Positions 22,900 through 41,288 of a DNA stretch of 64,000 nt are shown here, piece after piece. Location: contig JAZGAL010000012.1 in NCBI GenBank assembly GCA_036475815.1, positions 1,969-65,968 of the forward strand, given 5' to 3'. Positions within the stretch are counted from its first letter, which is position 1. Each line of letters starts with the position of its first letter. This DNA is from Gemmatimonadota bacterium. GTDB taxonomy: Bacteria; Gemmatimonadota; Gemmatimonadetes; Palauibacterales; KS3-K002. The notes under the pieces were generated by a model that was not told where the DNA came from, did not search any database, and saw nothing but the letters and a program-made list of their open reading frames with translations. A program made the position numbers and the translations under genes.

Positions 22900-24357
22900 T
22901 TAGTACTTGGGCATGGATGGGTCGACTTCGTCCGACCAGGCCAGGAGGCCGCCCGTCAGGTTGTATGCCCGTCGGAACCCTGCTTCCTGCAACAGCCGTA
23001 CGGCGCGCGCGCTTCGCGCGCCACTCCTGCAAAGCACGACGATATCCTCGGTGCTGTCCAGCCCGTTCATCTGGCCGGGTAATGACGCCAACGGGATCAG
23101 TTCCGCCGTTTCAAGGTTGCAGATGTTCCACTCGTGCGGTTCTCTCACGTCGATGATTCGAATCGGATCACCAGCATCGAGACGAGCTTTCAGATCGGTG
23201 GCCGTGATAGTGGGCACCTGTCCCTGAAGACCCTGCTGTTCCAGCGCCGCCTCGGTCACCCCGCAGAACGCTTCGTAGTCGATCAACTCGTGGATGGTGG
23301 GATTCTCCCCGCAGATCGGGCAATCCGGATCCTTGCGCAGGCGTAACTCACGGAACTTCATGCGTAGGGAATCGAAGAGAAGCAGGCGACCGATGAGCGG
23401 CTCACCCTGACCGAGTATCAACTTGACCGTCTCGTTGGCCTGCATGGTGCCGACTATGCCGGGCAATACGCCGAGAACACCCCCCTCGGCGCACGAGGGA
23501 ACGAGGCCTGGCGGTGGCGGCTCACGGAACAGGCAGCGGTAACACGGCCCCTCACGGGCATAGAAGACCGATACCTGGCCTTCGAACCTGAAGATTGAGC
23601 CGTAGACGTTCGGCTTCCCTAGAAGCACGCAGGCATCGTTCACGAGGTATCGCGTTGGAAAGTTATCTGTCCCGTCCACGATAATGTCGTAGTCTTTCAG
23701 TATCTCCATGGCGTTGTCGGACAGGAGCCGAACCTCATGCCTCTCGACGGTGATCTCCGGGTTTATGTCGAGCAGGCGCTCGCGCGCTGAAGCCAGCTTG
23801 GAGCGCCCGACATCCCCGGTGCCGTGGATGATCTGACGTTGGAGATTGCTGTAGTCGACGACATCGAAGTCCACCAGCCCGATCGTTCCGACACCGGCCG
23901 CCGCCAGGTATAGCGATGCGGGCGAGCCTAGGCCTCCGGCGCCGATGAGGAGAACGCGGGCTTGCTTGAGCTTCTTCTGCCCCTCGAGGCCCACCTCGGG
24001 CATGATGATGTGGCGGGCGTAGCGCCGGATTTCGTCGCGGCTCAGTTCCACTTGATCCGCCCCCAAGACCGTTGCGGCACCGCCGGCGATGGACGGGACG
24101 ATTCTGATCTCGTCGCCGTCTCCCACGCCGGTCTCCTCCCCGTCTTCAAGGTAGCGGATATCCTCGTCGTTAAGATAGATGTTGACGAAGCTGCGCAGAC
24201 TCCCGTCTTCCGTGTAGAGGTGCCGCCTGAGCGCCGAGTGGCGACTTGTCAGCTGGCCAAGCGCTTGCGCCACGGTGCCCGCCTCGACCTCTATCTTATC
24301 CCGCCCCTCGGTGTACTGCCTGAGGGGCGTAGGTACTATGACTGAGATGGTCTTCAT
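22900..24357 (-). CDS. moeZ: Fusion protein: CysO/MoaD-like ubiquitin-fold sulfur carrier + MoeZ/MoeB-type adenylyltransferase (E1) + rhodanese
   Basis: One uninterrupted 485-aa ORF. aa 1-93 ...FVNIYLNDEDIRY...GDEIRIVPSIAGG. Then RYARHIIMPEVGLEGQKKLKQARVLLIGAGGLGSP, NLQRQIIH, CYRC/CPIC zinc motifs. C-terminal rhodanese with CRSGARS. Confidence 0.9.
   Translation of the reverse strand: MKTISVIVPTPLRQYTEGRDKIEVEAGTVAQALGQLTSRHSALRRHLYTEDGSLRSFVNIYLNDEDIRYLEDGEETGVGDGDEIRIVPSIAGGAATVLGADQVELSRDEIRRYARHIIMPEVGLEGQKKLKQARVLLIGAGGLGSPASLYLAAAGVGTIGLVDFDVVDYSNLQRQIIHGTGDVGRSKLASARERLLDINPEITVERHEVRLLSDNAMEILKDYDIIVDGTDNFPTRYLVNDACVLLGKPNVYGSIFRFEGQVSVFYAREGPCYRCLFREPPPPGLVPSCAEGGVLGVLPGIVGTMQANETVKLILGQGEPLIGRLLLFDSLRMKFRELRLRKDPDCPICGENPTIHELIDYEAFCGVTEAALEQQGLQGQVPTITATDLKARLDAGDPIRIIDVREPHEWNICNLETAELIPLASLPGQMNGLDSTEDIVVLCRSGARSARAVRLLQEAGFRRAYNLTGGLLAWSDEVDPSMPKY
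22903..23211 (-). other. Rhodanese domain of the fusion protein
   Basis: IIDVREPHEWNICNLETAELIPL...IVVLCRSGARSARAVRLLQEAGFRRAYNLTGGLLAW, with active-site Cys in CRSGARS. Confidence 0.85.
24079..24357 (-). other. CysO/MoaD/ThiS-like beta-grasp domain ending in Gly92-Gly93 (internal to the fusion ORF)
   Basis: Codons GCC GGC GGT (A91 G92 G93) read directly at 24087-24079, followed in frame by GCC GCA ACG (AAT...). Closely resembles, from memory, M. tuberculosis CysO (FVNIYVNDEDVRF...ILPAVAGG). Confidence 0.8.
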
Positions 24358-24848
24358 CTGTCTTGCGTCCCTATTGTCGCTCGATTCTCATCCCCCACCA
24401 ACAGCGATATGAAACCCCGTCGATCGTCAGCCAGTCGCCAGGCCTCGGCACGGGCCATACGCCCGTTCTCGACGCTGACGATCAGATAGATATACCAGGG
24501 CCAGGCATGCTCCCGGTCGAAGGCCGAGGGCACGGGCGCAGCGTCCGGGTGAGAGTGGTAGTATCCAACAACCTGGACGTTCGCCGCCTCGGCCCGGCGC
24601 TCGAGTTCCACAACGGCACCTGGCCCGATCAAATAGCGCCGGCGACGCTCCTCCTCTCGAGCGTTCGCGAGCGATACGGCGTCCGCGACCTCGATGGCGC
24701 GCTCGTCCCGCACCAGGCCCAGCAGGCCGCCACAAGCTTCCTCTGGATAAGCGCCTTCCACGTGCGCCCGAATCTTCGCCAGGATGTGTCGGCTCAGGAT
24801 CAGGTTTATTCTCCTCTCGGCAACTTCCCGTGAGCGCTCTTCTTTCAT
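24354..24848 (-). CDS. mec: JAB1/MPN/Mov34 (JAMM) metallopeptidase, Mec+-like
   Basis: EEACGGLLG and YYHSHPDAAPVPSAFD (E...HxHx7Sx2D JAMM motif). Stop overlaps the fusion-gene start (ATGA). Confidence 0.85.
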   Translation of the reverse strand: MKEERSREVAERRINLILSRHILAKIRAHVEGAYPEEACGGLLGLVRDERAIEVADAVSLANAREEERRRRYLIGPGAVVELERRAEAANVQVVGYYHSHPDAAPVPSAFDREHAWPWYIYLIVSVENGRMARAEAWRLADDRRGFISLLVGDENRATIGTQDR

Positions 24849-24870: not shown

Positions 24871-25830
24871 CTACCACAGTCCCAGGCTCGAATAGCGCAT
24901 CCCGCTGTCGGGGAAAATGGCTACGACGCGTCCTTCGCTAAGTTCCGCCGCGATGGTTCGGGCGACGAACGCCGCGGCACCCGATGACGGGCCTACCAAC
25001 AGTCCGAGCTCACGCGCCAGGTGTCGCGTCATGTCGTAGGCATCCTCCGTCCGCACCCGCTGCGTGCGAGTTGGGATGGCCGGGTCGTAGAGACCGGGAA
25101 CGATAGAGGTAGGCAGGTGCTTGAGCCCTTCGATCCCGTGAAACCCGTCGTCCGGCTCGACGGCGATGAGCTGAACGCCGGGGTTGCGCTCCTTCAGGTA
25201 GCGTCCGGTGCCCATCAAAGTTCCGGTTGTGCCCAATCCGCAGACCAGGTGAGTGATCCTGCCTCGCGTCTGCCACCAGATCTCCGGGCCGGTCGTCTCG
25301 TAGTGGGCCCGCGCGTTGGCCGGATTGCTGTACTGGTCGGCGTAGAAATATCGATCCGATCTCTCGCCGGCTAGCTGCCGAGCGCGCAAGATGGCACCGT
25401 CCGAGCCCTCCAGAGGGTCCGTCTCGAAAACCTCAGCCCCGTAGGCGTGGAGCAGCGCCTTACGCTCCTCGCCGGCGTTCGCCGGTAGGCAGATTGTTAC
25501 GCCGAACCCGCGCGCAGCGCCCAACATGGCGTAGGCGATGGCGGTGTTGCCGGAGCTGGCGTCCAGCAGGCGCCTAACCGGAAGCTCGCCCGCCAGCTCG
25601 GCATCGAGGACGATGGCGCGGGCGGCCCGGTCCTTTACGGAACCTCCCGGGTTCAGCCACTCGGCCTTTGCCAGTACGCCGATTCGGGGAGGGAGCCCGG
25701 GCAGCGGCAGCGGAACGAGCGGGGTTCCGCCGATCAGCTCTGTAATCCCCTGCGGCGACCTGTCACCAATTTTCCTATGCAGGCGGGCTTCCGGCGACCG
25801 CCTCAGGCCTGACTGACTTACGGCTACCAT
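24871..25830 (-). CDS. cysM: Cysteine synthase, CysM type (PLP-dependent)
   Basis: NPGGSVKDRAA (PLP lysine), SSGNTAIAYA, GLGTTGTLMGTGRYL, SSGAA. The ATG at 25869 lies inside the loop of the upstream hairpin, so the ATG at 25830 is preferred. The start remains ambiguous. Confidence 0.9.
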   Translation of the reverse strand: MVAVSQSGLRRSPEARLHRKIGDRSPQGITELIGGTPLVPLPLPGLPPRIGVLAKAEWLNPGGSVKDRAARAIVLDAELAGELPVRRLLDASSGNTAIAYAMLGAARGFGVTICLPANAGEERKALLHAYGAEVFETDPLEGSDGAILRARQLAGERSDRYFYADQYSNPANARAHYETTGPEIWWQTRGRITHLVCGLGTTGTLMGTGRYLKERNPGVQLIAVEPDDGFHGIEGLKHLPTSIVPGLYDPAIPTRTQRVRTEDAYDMTRHLARELGLLVGPSSGAAAFVARTIAAELSEGRVVAIFPDSGMRYSSLGLW

Positions 25831-25841
25831 GATCGTATCGA

Positions 25842-25886
25842 TAGAAAATGAAAAGCCGGCCGTGACCATCTGGGCCGCGGCCGGCT
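25842..25886 (-). terminator. Intrinsic-terminator-like hairpin between the poly-Cys uORF and cysM (candidate attenuator)
   Basis: Minus-strand RNA AGCCGGCCG-(15 nt)-CGGCCGGCU gives a perfect 9-bp GC stem (plus coordinates 25878-25886 / 25854-25862), followed by UUUUCAUUUUCU. Confidence 0.55.
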
Positions 25887-25903
25887 GGTACTGCCTGGGT
25901 GCT

Positions 25904-26011
25904 TCAGATCTGGTCCACGACCCGCTTCCGATGCACCTGTACCTTCGGCACGGCCACGTTGGTGACGTGACGACAGATACAGCGGCGACAGATGCAAACG
26001 CGAGGAGTCAT
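25904..26011 (-). CDS. 35-codon poly-cysteine upstream ORF (candidate leader peptide of the cys operon)
   Basis: Read by hand: ATG ACT CCT CGC GTT TGC ATC TGT CGC CGC TGT ATC TGT CGT CAC ... ATC TGA = MTPRVCICRRCICRHVTNVAVPKVQVHRKRVVDQI. In-frame stop 36 nt upstream of the ATG. Too short for the ORF track. Stop is 17 nt before the hairpin. Confidence 0.5.
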   Translation of the reverse strand: MTPRVCICRRCICRHVTNVAVPKVQVHRKRVVDQI

Positions 26012-26086
26012 ATGCTTTCGGTCGTGATATGAACTAACACCCGGCTATCATAGATATGTCATCGGGGCCGTTTTGGTTCCCGGCGG

Positions 26087-26752
26087 TCAAACGTCCACTG
26101 CCAGGCTGCGGCGCAGCGCCTGAACGTTTTCCCGGATCGAGCCTTCGGAGAACACGGCTGAGCCCGCCACGAGCACGGTCGCGCCGGCGGCGACGGCGGC
26201 GGGGGCCGTCTTGGGGTCGATGCCACCGTCGACCTCGATCTGGATGTCCTGGCGCCCTTGCGTTTGCAGGCTCTGCGAGAGCCGGGCGATCTTCGGCAGG
26301 CACTCGGAGATGAATCTCTGGCCTCCGAATCCCGGATTCACCGTCATCACGAGAACCAGATCGACGAAGGGAATGATGTCGATCAACGATTCCACCGGTG
26401 TCGCCGGATTCACGGCGACGGCCGGACGAGCGCCGAGCTCGCGGATCCTCTGGATCGTGCGGTGTAGGTGCGGGCAGGTCTCCCGGTGCACGGTGAGCCA
26501 GTTTGCGCCCGCGCTGACAAAATCATCCAGGTAGCGATCGGGAGTCTCGATCATCAGATGAACGTCCAGGGGCAACTCGGTCACACGCCTTGCCGCCTCG
26601 ACGATCATCGGTCCAATGGTGATGTTCGGCACGAAGTGCCCGTCCATCACATCGACGTGAATCCAGTCAGCGCCACCGGCCTCGGCCTCGGCGATCTGTT
26701 CGCCCAGGCGCGTGAAATCGGCACTGAGTATGCTTGGGGCGATCAATGCCAT
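26087..26752 (-). CDS. rpe: Ribulose-phosphate 3-epimerase
   Basis: MALIAPSILSADFTRLGEQIAEAEAGGADWIHVDVMDGHFVPNITIGP, TVNPGFGGQ, VDGGI. Start placed at the ATG at 26752, 10 nt after the kbl stop, with a GAGG SD. Confidence 0.9.
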   Translation of the reverse strand: MALIAPSILSADFTRLGEQIAEAEAGGADWIHVDVMDGHFVPNITIGPMIVEAARRVTELPLDVHLMIETPDRYLDDFVSAGANWLTVHRETCPHLHRTIQRIRELGARPAVAVNPATPVESLIDIIPFVDLVLVMTVNPGFGGQRFISECLPKIARLSQSLQTQGRQDIQIEVDGGIDPKTAPAAVAAGATVLVAGSAVFSEGSIRENVQALRRSLAVDV

Positions 26753-26762
26753 CGTAGCGGCC

Positions 26763-27950
26763 TCAGAGTATTCCCAGTTTGGCACCCACCTTCTTCATGG
26801 CGTCGAGCACCGCGTCCAGGTGCTCGATCTCATGAGCGGCGGAGACCTGACAACGGATGCGCGCCGTGCCATGCGGTACCACGGGGAAACCGAAACCTAT
26901 GACGAAGACGCCTTCGTCGAGGAGCATCTGGCTCATCTTGATGGCCTCGGCGGTTTCGCCGATGATGATGGGCACGATGGGTGTATCGCCCTCGATGGGA
27001 TTGAACCCCGCCTCGAGCAGCTTCTTGCGGAAATACGCCGTGTTTCTCCTCAGCTTCTGTATCAACTCCGGGTGTTCGTCGAGGTACTCGATGGCCGCCA
27101 GCGAATGGGCTGCCGTGGCGGGCGGAAGCGCGTTCGAGAACAGCATCGGCCGTGAGCGCTGCGTCAGATAGTCGGTCAGTTCCCGGGGGCCGGCGGTAAA
27201 ACCGCCGGCGGCACCGCCCAGCGCCTTTCCGAGGGTGCTGGTGATAACGGGTATCTTCCCGTGGAGTCCGAAATGCTCGGGCGTGCCGCGGCCGGTATCG
27301 CCCAGCACGCCGGTGGAGTGCGAGTCGTCGATCGCCACGGTGGCGTCGTATTTTTCGGCCAGATCGAGAATATCGGGAAGCTTGCAGATGTCGCCTTCCA
27401 TGGAGAAGACGCCGTCTGTAATGATGAACCGGTGTCTGGAGCCGGCCGAGTCCTTCAGCGCCTGTTCCAGATCCGCCATGTCCGAATGCTTGTAGATCTT
27501 CCGCTTCGCCCGTGTCATTCGCACGCCATCGATAATCGAGGCGTGATTCAGCTCATCGGATATGAGCGTGTCCTCCTCTTCCAGGAACGTGGGCATCAGA
27601 CCGGTGTTCGCATTCCAGCACGAAACGTATGTGAGCGCCGACTCGAGGCCGAGGAAGGCAGCGATCTTCTCCTCGAGCTTCTTGTGGAGGGTGAACGTTC
27701 CACAGATGAACCGCACCGACGATGTCCCGGCCCCGTACTCCTCGTACGCCGCCGCGCCGGCCGCTACGACCGCCGGCGTGTTGCAGAGGCCCAGATAGTT
27801 GTTTGAGCATAGGTTGATCACCTCGCCGCCGGTCTCTTCGATTCTCACTACCGCGTCCTGCGGCGAATCAAGGTGGATAAGTCGCTTGTATACCCCCTGC
27901 TCCTCCATCTCGCGGAGCTCGCTTTGTAGCCGCTCGAACAGCCCGTTCAT
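26763..27950 (-). CDS. kbl: Glycine C-acetyltransferase (2-amino-3-ketobutyrate CoA ligase)
   Basis: 395 aa. INLCSNNYLGL, DELNHASIIDG, DDSHSTGVLG, STLGKALGG (PLP lysine). Typical Kbl/BioF-family layout, with the Kbl-like N-terminus ...EEQGVYKRL. Confidence 0.9.
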   Translation of the reverse strand: MNGLFERLQSELREMEEQGVYKRLIHLDSPQDAVVRIEETGGEVINLCSNNYLGLCNTPAVVAAGAAAYEEYGAGTSSVRFICGTFTLHKKLEEKIAAFLGLESALTYVSCWNANTGLMPTFLEEEDTLISDELNHASIIDGVRMTRAKRKIYKHSDMADLEQALKDSAGSRHRFIITDGVFSMEGDICKLPDILDLAEKYDATVAIDDSHSTGVLGDTGRGTPEHFGLHGKIPVITSTLGKALGGAAGGFTAGPRELTDYLTQRSRPMLFSNALPPATAAHSLAAIEYLDEHPELIQKLRRNTAYFRKKLLEAGFNPIEGDTPIVPIIIGETAEAIKMSQMLLDEGVFVIGFGFPVVPHGTARIRCQVSAAHEIEHLDAVLDAMKKVGAKLGIL

Positions 27951-40892: not shown

Positions 40893-40975
40893 GTCGTAGG
40901 CCGGCCAGTATTATTATGTCGGTCGTCCAACCAGAGTCTACATGTCTCAAACATCATCAGAGGGCCCGTCAGGGC

Positions 40976-40993
40976 GCTGTAATTGCTGTAATT
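40976..40993 (+). repeat. Tandem 9-mer GCTGTAATT x2 in the divergent promoter region
   Basis: gctgtaatt gctgtaatt read directly, 20 nt upstream of the TTG start at 41013. Each copy contains a TGTAAT (-10-like) hexamer. Confidence 0.8.
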
Positions 40994-41012
40994 GTAGGTA
41001 GAGGAGGGCACG

Positions 41013-41288
41013 TTGGGCAAACGTAAGAAGGAGGGTAGGCAGGAACCTTCTGTGTTCGACCGCGCACGAAACGAATTGTTCGGTCAGATAAGGCATTGCG
41101 GTGTGCTGCAGGCCACAGAGGACCAGCGGGATATCTGGTTCAAGGAAACGATGGAGTACATGGCCAAGCGGTATCCCGGGGTTTCCGAGGAGGAGTTGTC
41201 CCGGCTCAACGCCCTGGGTCGTCGCTATTGTGAGCCGGTCAGACCGCACGGTAGCCAAGTTGGCGGGCTTGCCGAGGATAGTGGCTGA
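41013..41288 (+). CDS. Hypothetical small protein
   Basis: 91-aa ORF. GAGGAGGG SD 4 nt before the TTG. No motif recognised. Confidence 0.5.
   Translation: MGKRKKEGRQEPSVFDRARNELFGQIRHCGVLQATEDQRDIWFKETMEYMAKRYPGVSEEELSRLNALGRRYCEPVRPHGSQVGGLAEDSG

Follow-up and report, generated by a model that had tools for sequence, protein, structure and literature searches.

Classical transcription attenuators of amino acid operons carry a short leader open reading frame (ORF) in which codons for the pathway's final product are clustered. To our knowledge, cysteine lies outside the textbook set of amino acids sensed in this way (trp, his, phe, leu, thr and ilv). Cys leader peptides without terminators were predicted in Actinobacteria in 2005 (PMC1262725), and the leaderless poly-Cys small ORFs (sORFs) of mycobacteria have been shown experimentally to act by translational attenuation (10.1101/834739). 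Ms5788A, the sole mycobacterial sORF to be dissected in detail, unmasks the Shine-Dalgarno (SD) sequence of the next gene, and the mode of action at the other loci was left open (10.1101/834739). In Rhodobacterales, the motif uORFC-8-2 precedes cysS and is a predicted ribosome-mediated transcription attenuator with Cys codons in an upstream ORF (uORF) and a terminal U-run (PMC8632094). No report of such elements in Gemmatimonadota, Acidobacteria or Ignavibacteria was found in the literature searched. The stretch analysed here, a window of 64,000 nucleotides from a Gemmatimonadota bacterium (GenBank contig JAZGAL010000012.1), contains a leader upstream of cysM-mec-cysO::moeZ that is most probably a ribosome-mediated leader-peptide transcription attenuator. 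Judging from sequence comparison and folding, it would sense charged tRNA-Cys and control transcriptional readthrough into the operon.

On the minus strand of the window the order is rpe, uORF, hairpin with U-run, 11 nt, and cysM-mec-cysO::moeZ (Table 1). An earlier note on this DNA had proposed a cysteine-sensing attenuator built on a 35-codon uORF with four Cys in eight residues, and this ORF was recovered when the sequence was re-read. Its product begins MTPRVCICRRCICRH and has no Pfam match. Sites with at least four Cys in eight residues are scarce, with only five in the six frames of the 64 kb.

The uORF is followed by a hairpin with the features of an intrinsic terminator. A 9-bp GC stem begins 17 nt after the uORF stop and leads into a U-rich tract, at coordinates that match those first proposed, and the hairpin has a predicted free energy of -26.5 kcal/mol (z = -4.5; 0 of 200 shuffles as good). 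A simple terminator scan with a loop limit of 8 nt missed this hairpin, together with those of two loci from other phyla (L031 and L026), and all three were folded directly instead. The U-run ends at 25842, 11 nt from the cysM ATG at 25830, too short a distance to hold a promoter for cysM. Any possible promoter thus lies on the far side of the terminator, cysM can be expressed only by reading through it, and that readthrough must be conditional. The start at 25830 is also the one called in the relative L161, whose CysM is 96% identical to that of the window. A second in-frame ATG, at 25869, had been put forward as an alternative cysM start lying in the hairpin loop. It does sit in the apical part of the terminator hairpin; it is not conserved, relatives use the ATG equivalent to 25830, and it was rejected as the start.

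The only poly-Cys sORFs studied by experiment act on translation (10.1101/834739), and Cys uORFs of the type found in Acidobacteriaceae precede cysM homologues without canonical terminators. By analogy, the uORF of the window could control access to the cysM start or the stability of the mRNA, in which case the hairpin would not be a terminator. Translational attenuation of this kind is unlikely, however, because the hairpin shows everything expected of an intrinsic terminator, a stable GC stem with a U-run directly after it. Both are retained in nearly all family members, and 23 nt separate the end of the hairpin from the cysM ATG, so that it encloses neither that start codon nor an SD-like sequence.

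Four conserved blocks follow the Cys cluster in DNA alignments of the leaders (A1 and A3) and correspond to four RNA elements. Element 1 carries CACGGCGCC; element 2 carries GGCGCCGUGCCGGAG, often with GGUGC next to it; element 3 carries (GCACC...)CUCCGGCCGCGGC; and element 4 carries CGCGGCCG and then the U-run. For element 2, the block GCCGUGCCGGAG is conserved in both alignments. Two alternative structures can be drawn from these elements, either a 1:2 hairpin together with the 3:4 terminator, or a 2:3 antiterminator that consumes the 5' arm of the terminator. The 1:2 hairpin (25981..25938; -18.3 kcal/mol, z = -2.6) was absent from the earlier note and completes the classical four-element design. 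The antiterminator region (25958..25871) folds with -41.9 kcal/mol (z = -2.7). Within the uORF, GGCCGUG (25955..25949) complements CACGGCC (25864..25858) and also, with one G.U pair, CGCGGCC (25879..25873). The earlier note had suggested that these pairings compete, and the one with the 5' arm turns out to be part of a conserved antiterminator helix of at least 12 bp between elements 2 and 3. The GGUGC/GCACC pairing of a further hairpin, between elements 2 and 3, is recognisable by eye in about 13 of 21 relatives, a count made with no formal score. An Rfam cmscan of 25000..27000, run with E values up to 10, returned nothing beyond a chance match to a small nucleolar RNA elsewhere in the region.

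According to the mechanism proposed here, transcription would start upstream of the uORF, at a promoter just past rpe or by readthrough from rpe, and a ribosome would translate the uORF close behind RNA polymerase, coupling of the two processes being assumed for this phylum. When Cys-tRNA is plentiful, the ribosome would pass elements 1 and 2 and reach the stop codon, which is separated from the terminator stem by 17 nt. Element 2 would then be occupied by the ribosome or re-paired with element 1, elements 3 and 4 would pair, and transcription would end in the U-run, 11 nt short of cysM. Under a shortage of Cys-tRNA, the ribosome would instead stall on the Cys codons, most of which are the slow, wobble-read TGT, and its footprint would cover element 1. 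This would leave element 2 free to pair with element 3 once the latter has emerged, so that the terminator could not form and the operon would be transcribed. With no translation at all, the 1:2 and 3:4 hairpins would form and transcription would again terminate.

Conservation of the Cys uORF and the hairpin in relatives had been set beforehand as a test, and 20 Gemmatimonadota leaders keep the uORF and the hairpin, nearly all of them with clustered Cys codons. These comprise L001-L011 from genomes, L081, the one further usable Gemmatimonadota leader from a scan of metagenomes with CysM, and eight further distinct leaders obtained through CysM protein look-ups. The CysM relatives, of which a protein search lists about 120 clusters, are named cysteine synthase B in some sources; they are 61-96% identical and place the window in Gemmatimonadota, in agreement with the suspected GC-rich, non-actinobacterial lineage. 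The layout is the same in all 20, with some 10-40 nt between the terminator and the start of cysM. Counting the window, the 21 uORFs are 17-36 codons long with an in-frame start (ATG in 19, GTG in 2) and stop, and their lengths and C-termini vary freely. In most relatives 2-6 Cys codons are grouped at about codons 5-16, as in leader peptides beginning MAQLVCICCHCACCHG, MVKLCCKCRHCICRHG or MRYQDRSCCCPCICRQG and in that of L161, which begins MAPRVCICRCCICRHV; several contain CC or CCC. The leader uORF is systematically unannotated, and no automatic gene call falls in the rpe-cysM spacer at any of the 10 leader-bearing loci looked up (L161-L170).

Both alternative structures are preserved across the 21 sequences. 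The terminated form (1:2 + 3:4) has 82.7% of cells paired, compared with 27-50% in a control with the partner strands slid out of register, and the antiterminator (2:3) has 84.1% compared with 31-48%; double-change cells number 14 and 10, respectively (0/500 shuffles in each case, a control that overstates significance given the kinship of the sequences). The terminator helix has 87% of its cells paired, and the 1:2 helix shows changes on both sides in five of its nine pairs. The window itself provides a compensated example in which the CCGGAG/CUCCGG of relatives is replaced by CCGAAGGUAC/GUACCAGCCGG and the helix is kept. A covariance model of the leader, R1, scores 106 bits at 25842..25982 on the minus strand, its only full-length match in the window. 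R1 also recovers the held-out leaders L081 (64 bits) and L008 (49.5 bits), has no match in the loci of other phyla, and offers a seed for annotating the element.

The distinction between RNA and peptide conservation is clearest in L169. Its uORF, MGSMICICRRCFCRHGA followed by the stop (L169 1025-1078), has 17 codons and ends between elements 1 and 2, and elements 2-4 are conserved with element 2 outside the uORF. The only conserved peptide segment outside the Cys cluster, 'AVPE' (GCC GUG CCG GAG), coincides with element 2 in the other leaders, and its persistence outside the uORF in L169 indicates a constraint on the RNA. The truncation likewise indicates that the C-terminal peptide is dispensable. 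These facts bear on whether the uORF could be an independent small gene for a Cys-rich micro-protein, metal-binding or redox-active for instance, with the hairpin simply terminating its transcript or the rpe transcript. Such a gene would fit the conservation of the ORF and of its Cys residues, and leader sORFs could also act as peptides (Canestrari et al., 10.1101/834739). Such a gene is nevertheless very unlikely, as it would leave cysM without a promoter in the 11 nt from U-run to ATG, and as the only part of the peptide conserved beyond the Cys cluster coincides with element 2, which L169 has outside the ORF, with uORF lengths and C-termini free to vary. Moreover, a conserved alternative pairing of the ORF with a terminator arm is not expected of a plain gene.

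Other leaders depart further from the common pattern. L081 (517-665) keeps the promoter motif and the antiterminator and terminator blocks, and its uORF, V/MISRKCRPATEAARTHRCT and stop, has a single Cys codon at the position of the cluster; it may represent a decaying or differently tuned attenuator. The leader is absent from two more distant Gemmatimonadota cysM-mec-cysO::moeZ loci. In L172 (1-1204) a gene for an Rrf2-family regulator and a rhodanese gene precede cysM, the rhodanese gene overlapping the cysM start, and in L171 (1-1200) a divergent UDP-glucose dehydrogenase gene lies upstream of cysM. These arrangements suggest control by proteins in place of the attenuator at such distant loci.

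The Cys codons themselves appear to be under selection. Aligned Cys codons are invariant in their first two bases and vary between T and C in the third, which points to selection on the identity of the amino acid or the codon. The earlier note had remarked that three of the four Cys codons of the window are TGT, a codon rare elsewhere, and the counts agree, with TGT making up 15 of 77 Cys codons in window genes (long ORFs with high GC content at third codon positions) and 28 of 206 in the genes of relatives. The bias holds across the family, where TGT accounts for 28 of 47 leader Cys codons (60%) but for only 43 of 283 among genes, or 14-19% in the two gene sets (Fisher p = 5e-10, a value that the relatedness of the sequences inflates). 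In about half of the family, the window among them, 5 nt separate the last clustered Cys codon from element 1; in the remaining relatives this codon is further away or shifted.

These observations also speak to ribosome-independent riboregulation, in which a metabolite, a protein or a tRNA would bind the leader, as a riboswitch, a T-box-like element or a protein antitermination system, and the ORF would be incidental. Sequence conservation of elements 2-4 in excess of what simple pairing needs would fit such binding, as would relatives such as L081 that retain the RNA elements with few Cys codons. Regulation of this kind is nonetheless quite unlikely, given a start and open frame in 21 of 21 leaders and a third-base variation that points to coding selection. 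The spacing of Cys cluster and element 1, fixed at 5 nt in roughly half of the family, the recurrence of Cys-cluster uORFs of unrelated sequence in other phyla, and the lack of an Rfam match even at the permissive threshold used for 25000..27000 argue in the same direction.

Folding with and without masking of the uORF, proposed earlier as a check on the attenuator, gave a clear response in the window. Nascent RNA was folded up to just past element 3 with the footprint of the ribosome masked. The probability that element 3 is paired with the zone of element 2 is 0.21 in the absence of a ribosome; it becomes 0.87 when the footprint covers a Cys codon and 0.03 when it covers the stop codon. Nascent folds of L001 and L005 change in the same direction as those of the window.

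Several findings weigh against attenuation by a stalled ribosome. For most relatives, truncated nascent RNAs favour the antiterminator whichever ribosome state is modelled, and in equilibrium folds of complete leaders the terminator is favoured in most relatives under any mask. The switch must therefore be kinetic, as in classical attenuators. No consistent SD sequence precedes the uORF in the window or in relatives, which is why its translation can only be inferred. The Cys codons of the window are never consecutive (C-I-C-R-R-C-I-C), and L081, L009, L170 and L002 have only one or two clustered Cys codons (one in L081). Besides the kinship of the sequences noted above, covariation is modest and elements 2-4 are almost invariant, as expected where one strand must pair with two partners, and the counts of double-change pairs and of pair types do not beat shuffles. 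Finally, the candidate promoter of the window lacks the GTT of the -10 element. Against these stands the comparative evidence, which supports each element of the original proposal, a Cys-codon leader peptide with an intrinsic terminator before cysM-mec-cysO::moeZ, and attenuation through charged tRNA-Cys is the reading retained here.

Table 1. Features of the cysM leader, its surroundings and terminator-type leaders of other phyla. Positions are those of the window unless a locus is named.
Feature	Position	Strand	Description
Leader uORF	25904..26011	-	35 codons + stop, MTPRVCICRRCICRHVTNVAVPKVQVHRKRVVDQI; ATG 26011 to TGA 25906-25904
Putative regulatory Cys cluster	25973..25996	-	codons 6, 8, 11, 13 = TGC, TGT, TGT, TGT; 4 Cys in 8 codons
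Element 1	25962..25981	-	5' strand of 1:2 hairpin, UGUAUCUGUCGUCACGUCAC; holds Cys codons 11 and 13
Element 2	25939..25957	-	GUGGCCGUGCCGAAGGUAC; pairs with element 1 or element 3
Middle hairpin	25898..25937	-	GGUGC 25937..25933 / GCACC 25902..25898; predicted fold; uORF stop codon enclosed
Element 3	25872..25891	-	antiterminator 3' strand, GUACCAGCCGGCCGCGGCCC; overlaps terminator 5' arm
Predicted intrinsic terminator	25842..25886	-	9-bp stem AGCCGGCCG/CGGCCGGCU + 4-bp inner stem, then UUUUCAUUUUCU
Terminator stem, 5' arm	25886..25878	-	AGCCGGCCG
Terminator stem, 3' arm	25862..25854	-	CGGCCGGCU
Candidate -35 of ECF-type promoter	26075..26081	-	GGGAACC; 6 nt past rpe stop; nearly invariant in leader alignment
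rpe	upstream of uORF	-	Pfam match
cysM	24871..25830	-	PLP-dependent cysteine synthase; first regulated gene; PALP 1e-65
mec	24354..24848	-	JAB/MPN metalloprotease; Prok-JAB 1.7e-22
cysO::moeZ fusion	22900..24357	-	Pfam ThiS, ThiF, Rhodanese
Terminator-type locus	L031 3767-3960		Ignavibacteria
Terminator-type locus	L078 3780-3945		Ignavibacteria
Terminator-type locus	L026 3734-3930		Bacteroidota
Terminator-type locus	L046 2981-3205		Chloroflexota
Terminator-type locus	L131 1186-1355		metagenome contig
ECF, extracytoplasmic function; PLP, pyridoxal phosphate.

A candidate promoter of the ECF type lies between rpe and the uORF. GGAAC[CT]-N17-GTT is found in 14 of 21 leaders, at a background of 0.003 per 130 nt, and stands 64-99 nt before the uORF (32 nt in L081); the region of the motif was noted in L001-L011, L081, L165, L166 and L169. 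The window, L161 and L162 keep GGAACC and have ATA or ATT for GTT (ATA in the window). No -10-like element stands directly before the window uORF ATG, the promoter-like motif ending about 40-70 nt upstream. In Mycobacterium tuberculosis, the SigH consensus is GGAAYR-N17-GTT (PMC4803200), and SigH directly drives mec-cysO-cysM and moeZ (PMC4803200, PMC8280819). The likeness hints that the CysO pathway is tied to ECF or oxidative-stress promoters outside Actinobacteria as well. Further upstream, an aminotransferase gene (Pfam) lies 5' of rpe in the window, and the same gene order recurs in relatives, running from the aminotransferase gene through rpe and, past a spacer of some 240-400 nt, to cysM, mec and cysO::moeZ.

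Cys-cluster uORFs also occur upstream of cysM homologues in other phyla. A survey of 145 such upstream regions from many phyla, with a criterion of at least three Cys in six residues of a small ORF, found matches on the sense strand in 32. The antisense control gave 1 of 145 and other windows 83 of 3040 (2.7%), which corresponds to an enrichment of about 8-fold (p = 6e-20). By eye, three of the 32 matches resemble chance ORFs (L014, L084 and L091). These three, and the abundance of spurious ORFs in GC-rich DNA, are what could be cited for regarding the window leader as a fortuitous ORF in a GC-rich spacer beside an ordinary terminator. Such an accident is extremely improbable: six-frame translation, over 128 kb, gives only five Cys-dense sites, Cys-cluster ORFs are enriched before cysM homologues, and conservation over 21 loci with CysM 61-96% identical effectively refutes it.

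One group of the surveyed uORFs, found in Acidobacteriaceae/Terracidiphilus, follows the pattern M..C.CCCCRSFRACPVELSA upstream of cysM homologues (L040 3734-3826, L044, L063, L093, L104, L111, L112, L126, L127, L133, L134, L143, L148, L149 and L028). The uORF begins 6 nt after TTGAC-N17-TATACT and is, from this spacing, probably leaderless. No canonical terminator precedes cysM at these loci. They share a conserved segment, CGCUCC...GGAGUUGAGCG, which suggests a different RNA switch. A second group consists of five non-Gemmatimonadota leaders in which Cys-run uORFs (CCCC or CCC) are combined with strong intrinsic terminators before cysM homologues (Table 1). In one of these, L031, a 14-nt segment of the uORF, CUAUUCUGGUGAGG, complements the 5' arm and loop of the terminator, CUUCACCAGAAUAG.

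The window contains a second Cys-rich small ORF, at 40942..41001 on the plus strand (MSQTSSEGPSGRCNCCNCR and stop), which follows a promoter-like site, TTGCAT-N17-TATTAT. Its stop abuts AGGAGGG-N6-TTG, the start of a 91-aa ORF (41013..41288) that belongs to no Pfam family, and beyond this ORF lie a terminator-like hairpin and a gene for a CNNM/CBS/CorC transporter. The layout resembles that of the mycobacterial C-terminal poly-Cys sORFs, and the fold of the region is not significant (z = -0.13).

A broader reading, held tentatively and with slightly more doubt than belief, is that Cys uORFs before CysM/CysO-type genes are widespread, have multiple origins and take at least two forms, with a SigH-like ECF promoter stacked upon the attenuator in Gemmatimonadota and tuning by TGT codons. 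In the loci sampled, such uORFs occur in Gemmatimonadota, Acidobacteriota, Ignavibacteriota, Bacteroidota and Chloroflexota; Actinobacteria were already known to have them. The two forms may be one with an intrinsic terminator and an antiterminator and one that is leaderless and has no terminator. If this is true, the Gemmatimonadota operon would combine two inputs, oxidative-stress signalling acting on initiation and the charging of tRNA-Cys acting on elongation, with the rare TGT codons adjusting the sensitivity. The four-element leader, from a poorly studied phylum, together with unrelated Cys uORFs before about one fifth of the sampled cysM homologues, suggests that control of cysteine synthesis through tRNA-Cys, sensed by the ribosome, is common and goes unannotated. 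For the window, the putative attenuator represents an unannotated example of the classical type; its codons, helices and terminator are placed with nucleotide precision, which makes the model directly testable.

Among the described systems, the mycobacterial sORFs are likewise Cys-rich, unannotated and placed before cysteine-metabolism operons, and there too pausing relieves repression, with induction at low cysteine. They are leaderless, and the criterion by which they are recognised is consecutive Cys codons (at least two), often C-terminal. In contrast, the Cys codons of the window stand in the N-terminal half of the uORF and include no such pair, the uORF would begin about 35-60 nt past its likely promoter, and a terminator and an antiterminator are conserved. 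The predicted attenuator uORFC-8-2 belongs to a different phylum, controls cysteinyl-tRNA synthetase and is described as a two-stem motif with a tandem pair of Cys codons, mostly UGC, at positions 14-15. By this description the window leader is set apart from it, with cysM downstream and Cys at positions 6, 8, 11 and 13, and the two share the terminator feature only. The mec-cysO-cysM operon of M. tuberculosis encodes the same CysO-dependent pathway, and most Gemmatimonadota leaders have a motif like its SigH consensus. Control there is exerted at initiation by an ECF sigma factor, and no uORF attenuator has been described.

The closest architectural counterparts are the classical attenuators, namely trpL, hisL, leuL, thrL, pheL and ilvL of Escherichia coli and Salmonella and the ilvB1 leader of M. 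tuberculosis (PMC13236596). The window leader differs from them in the amino acid it would sense, cysteine, in its Gemmatimonadota lineage, in its lack of sequence homology and in its Cys codons, which are interspersed and form no pure run. Its family also differs in the reach of the uORF, which in most members extends across both segment 1 and segment 2 to a stop 20-45 nt short of the terminator 5' arm; L169 alone has its stop between these two segments, as trpL does. In common with the classical systems are the choice between 1:2 + 3:4 and 2:3 pairing, a terminator directly before the first structural gene and, as predicted here, a stalled ribosome that masks segment 1.

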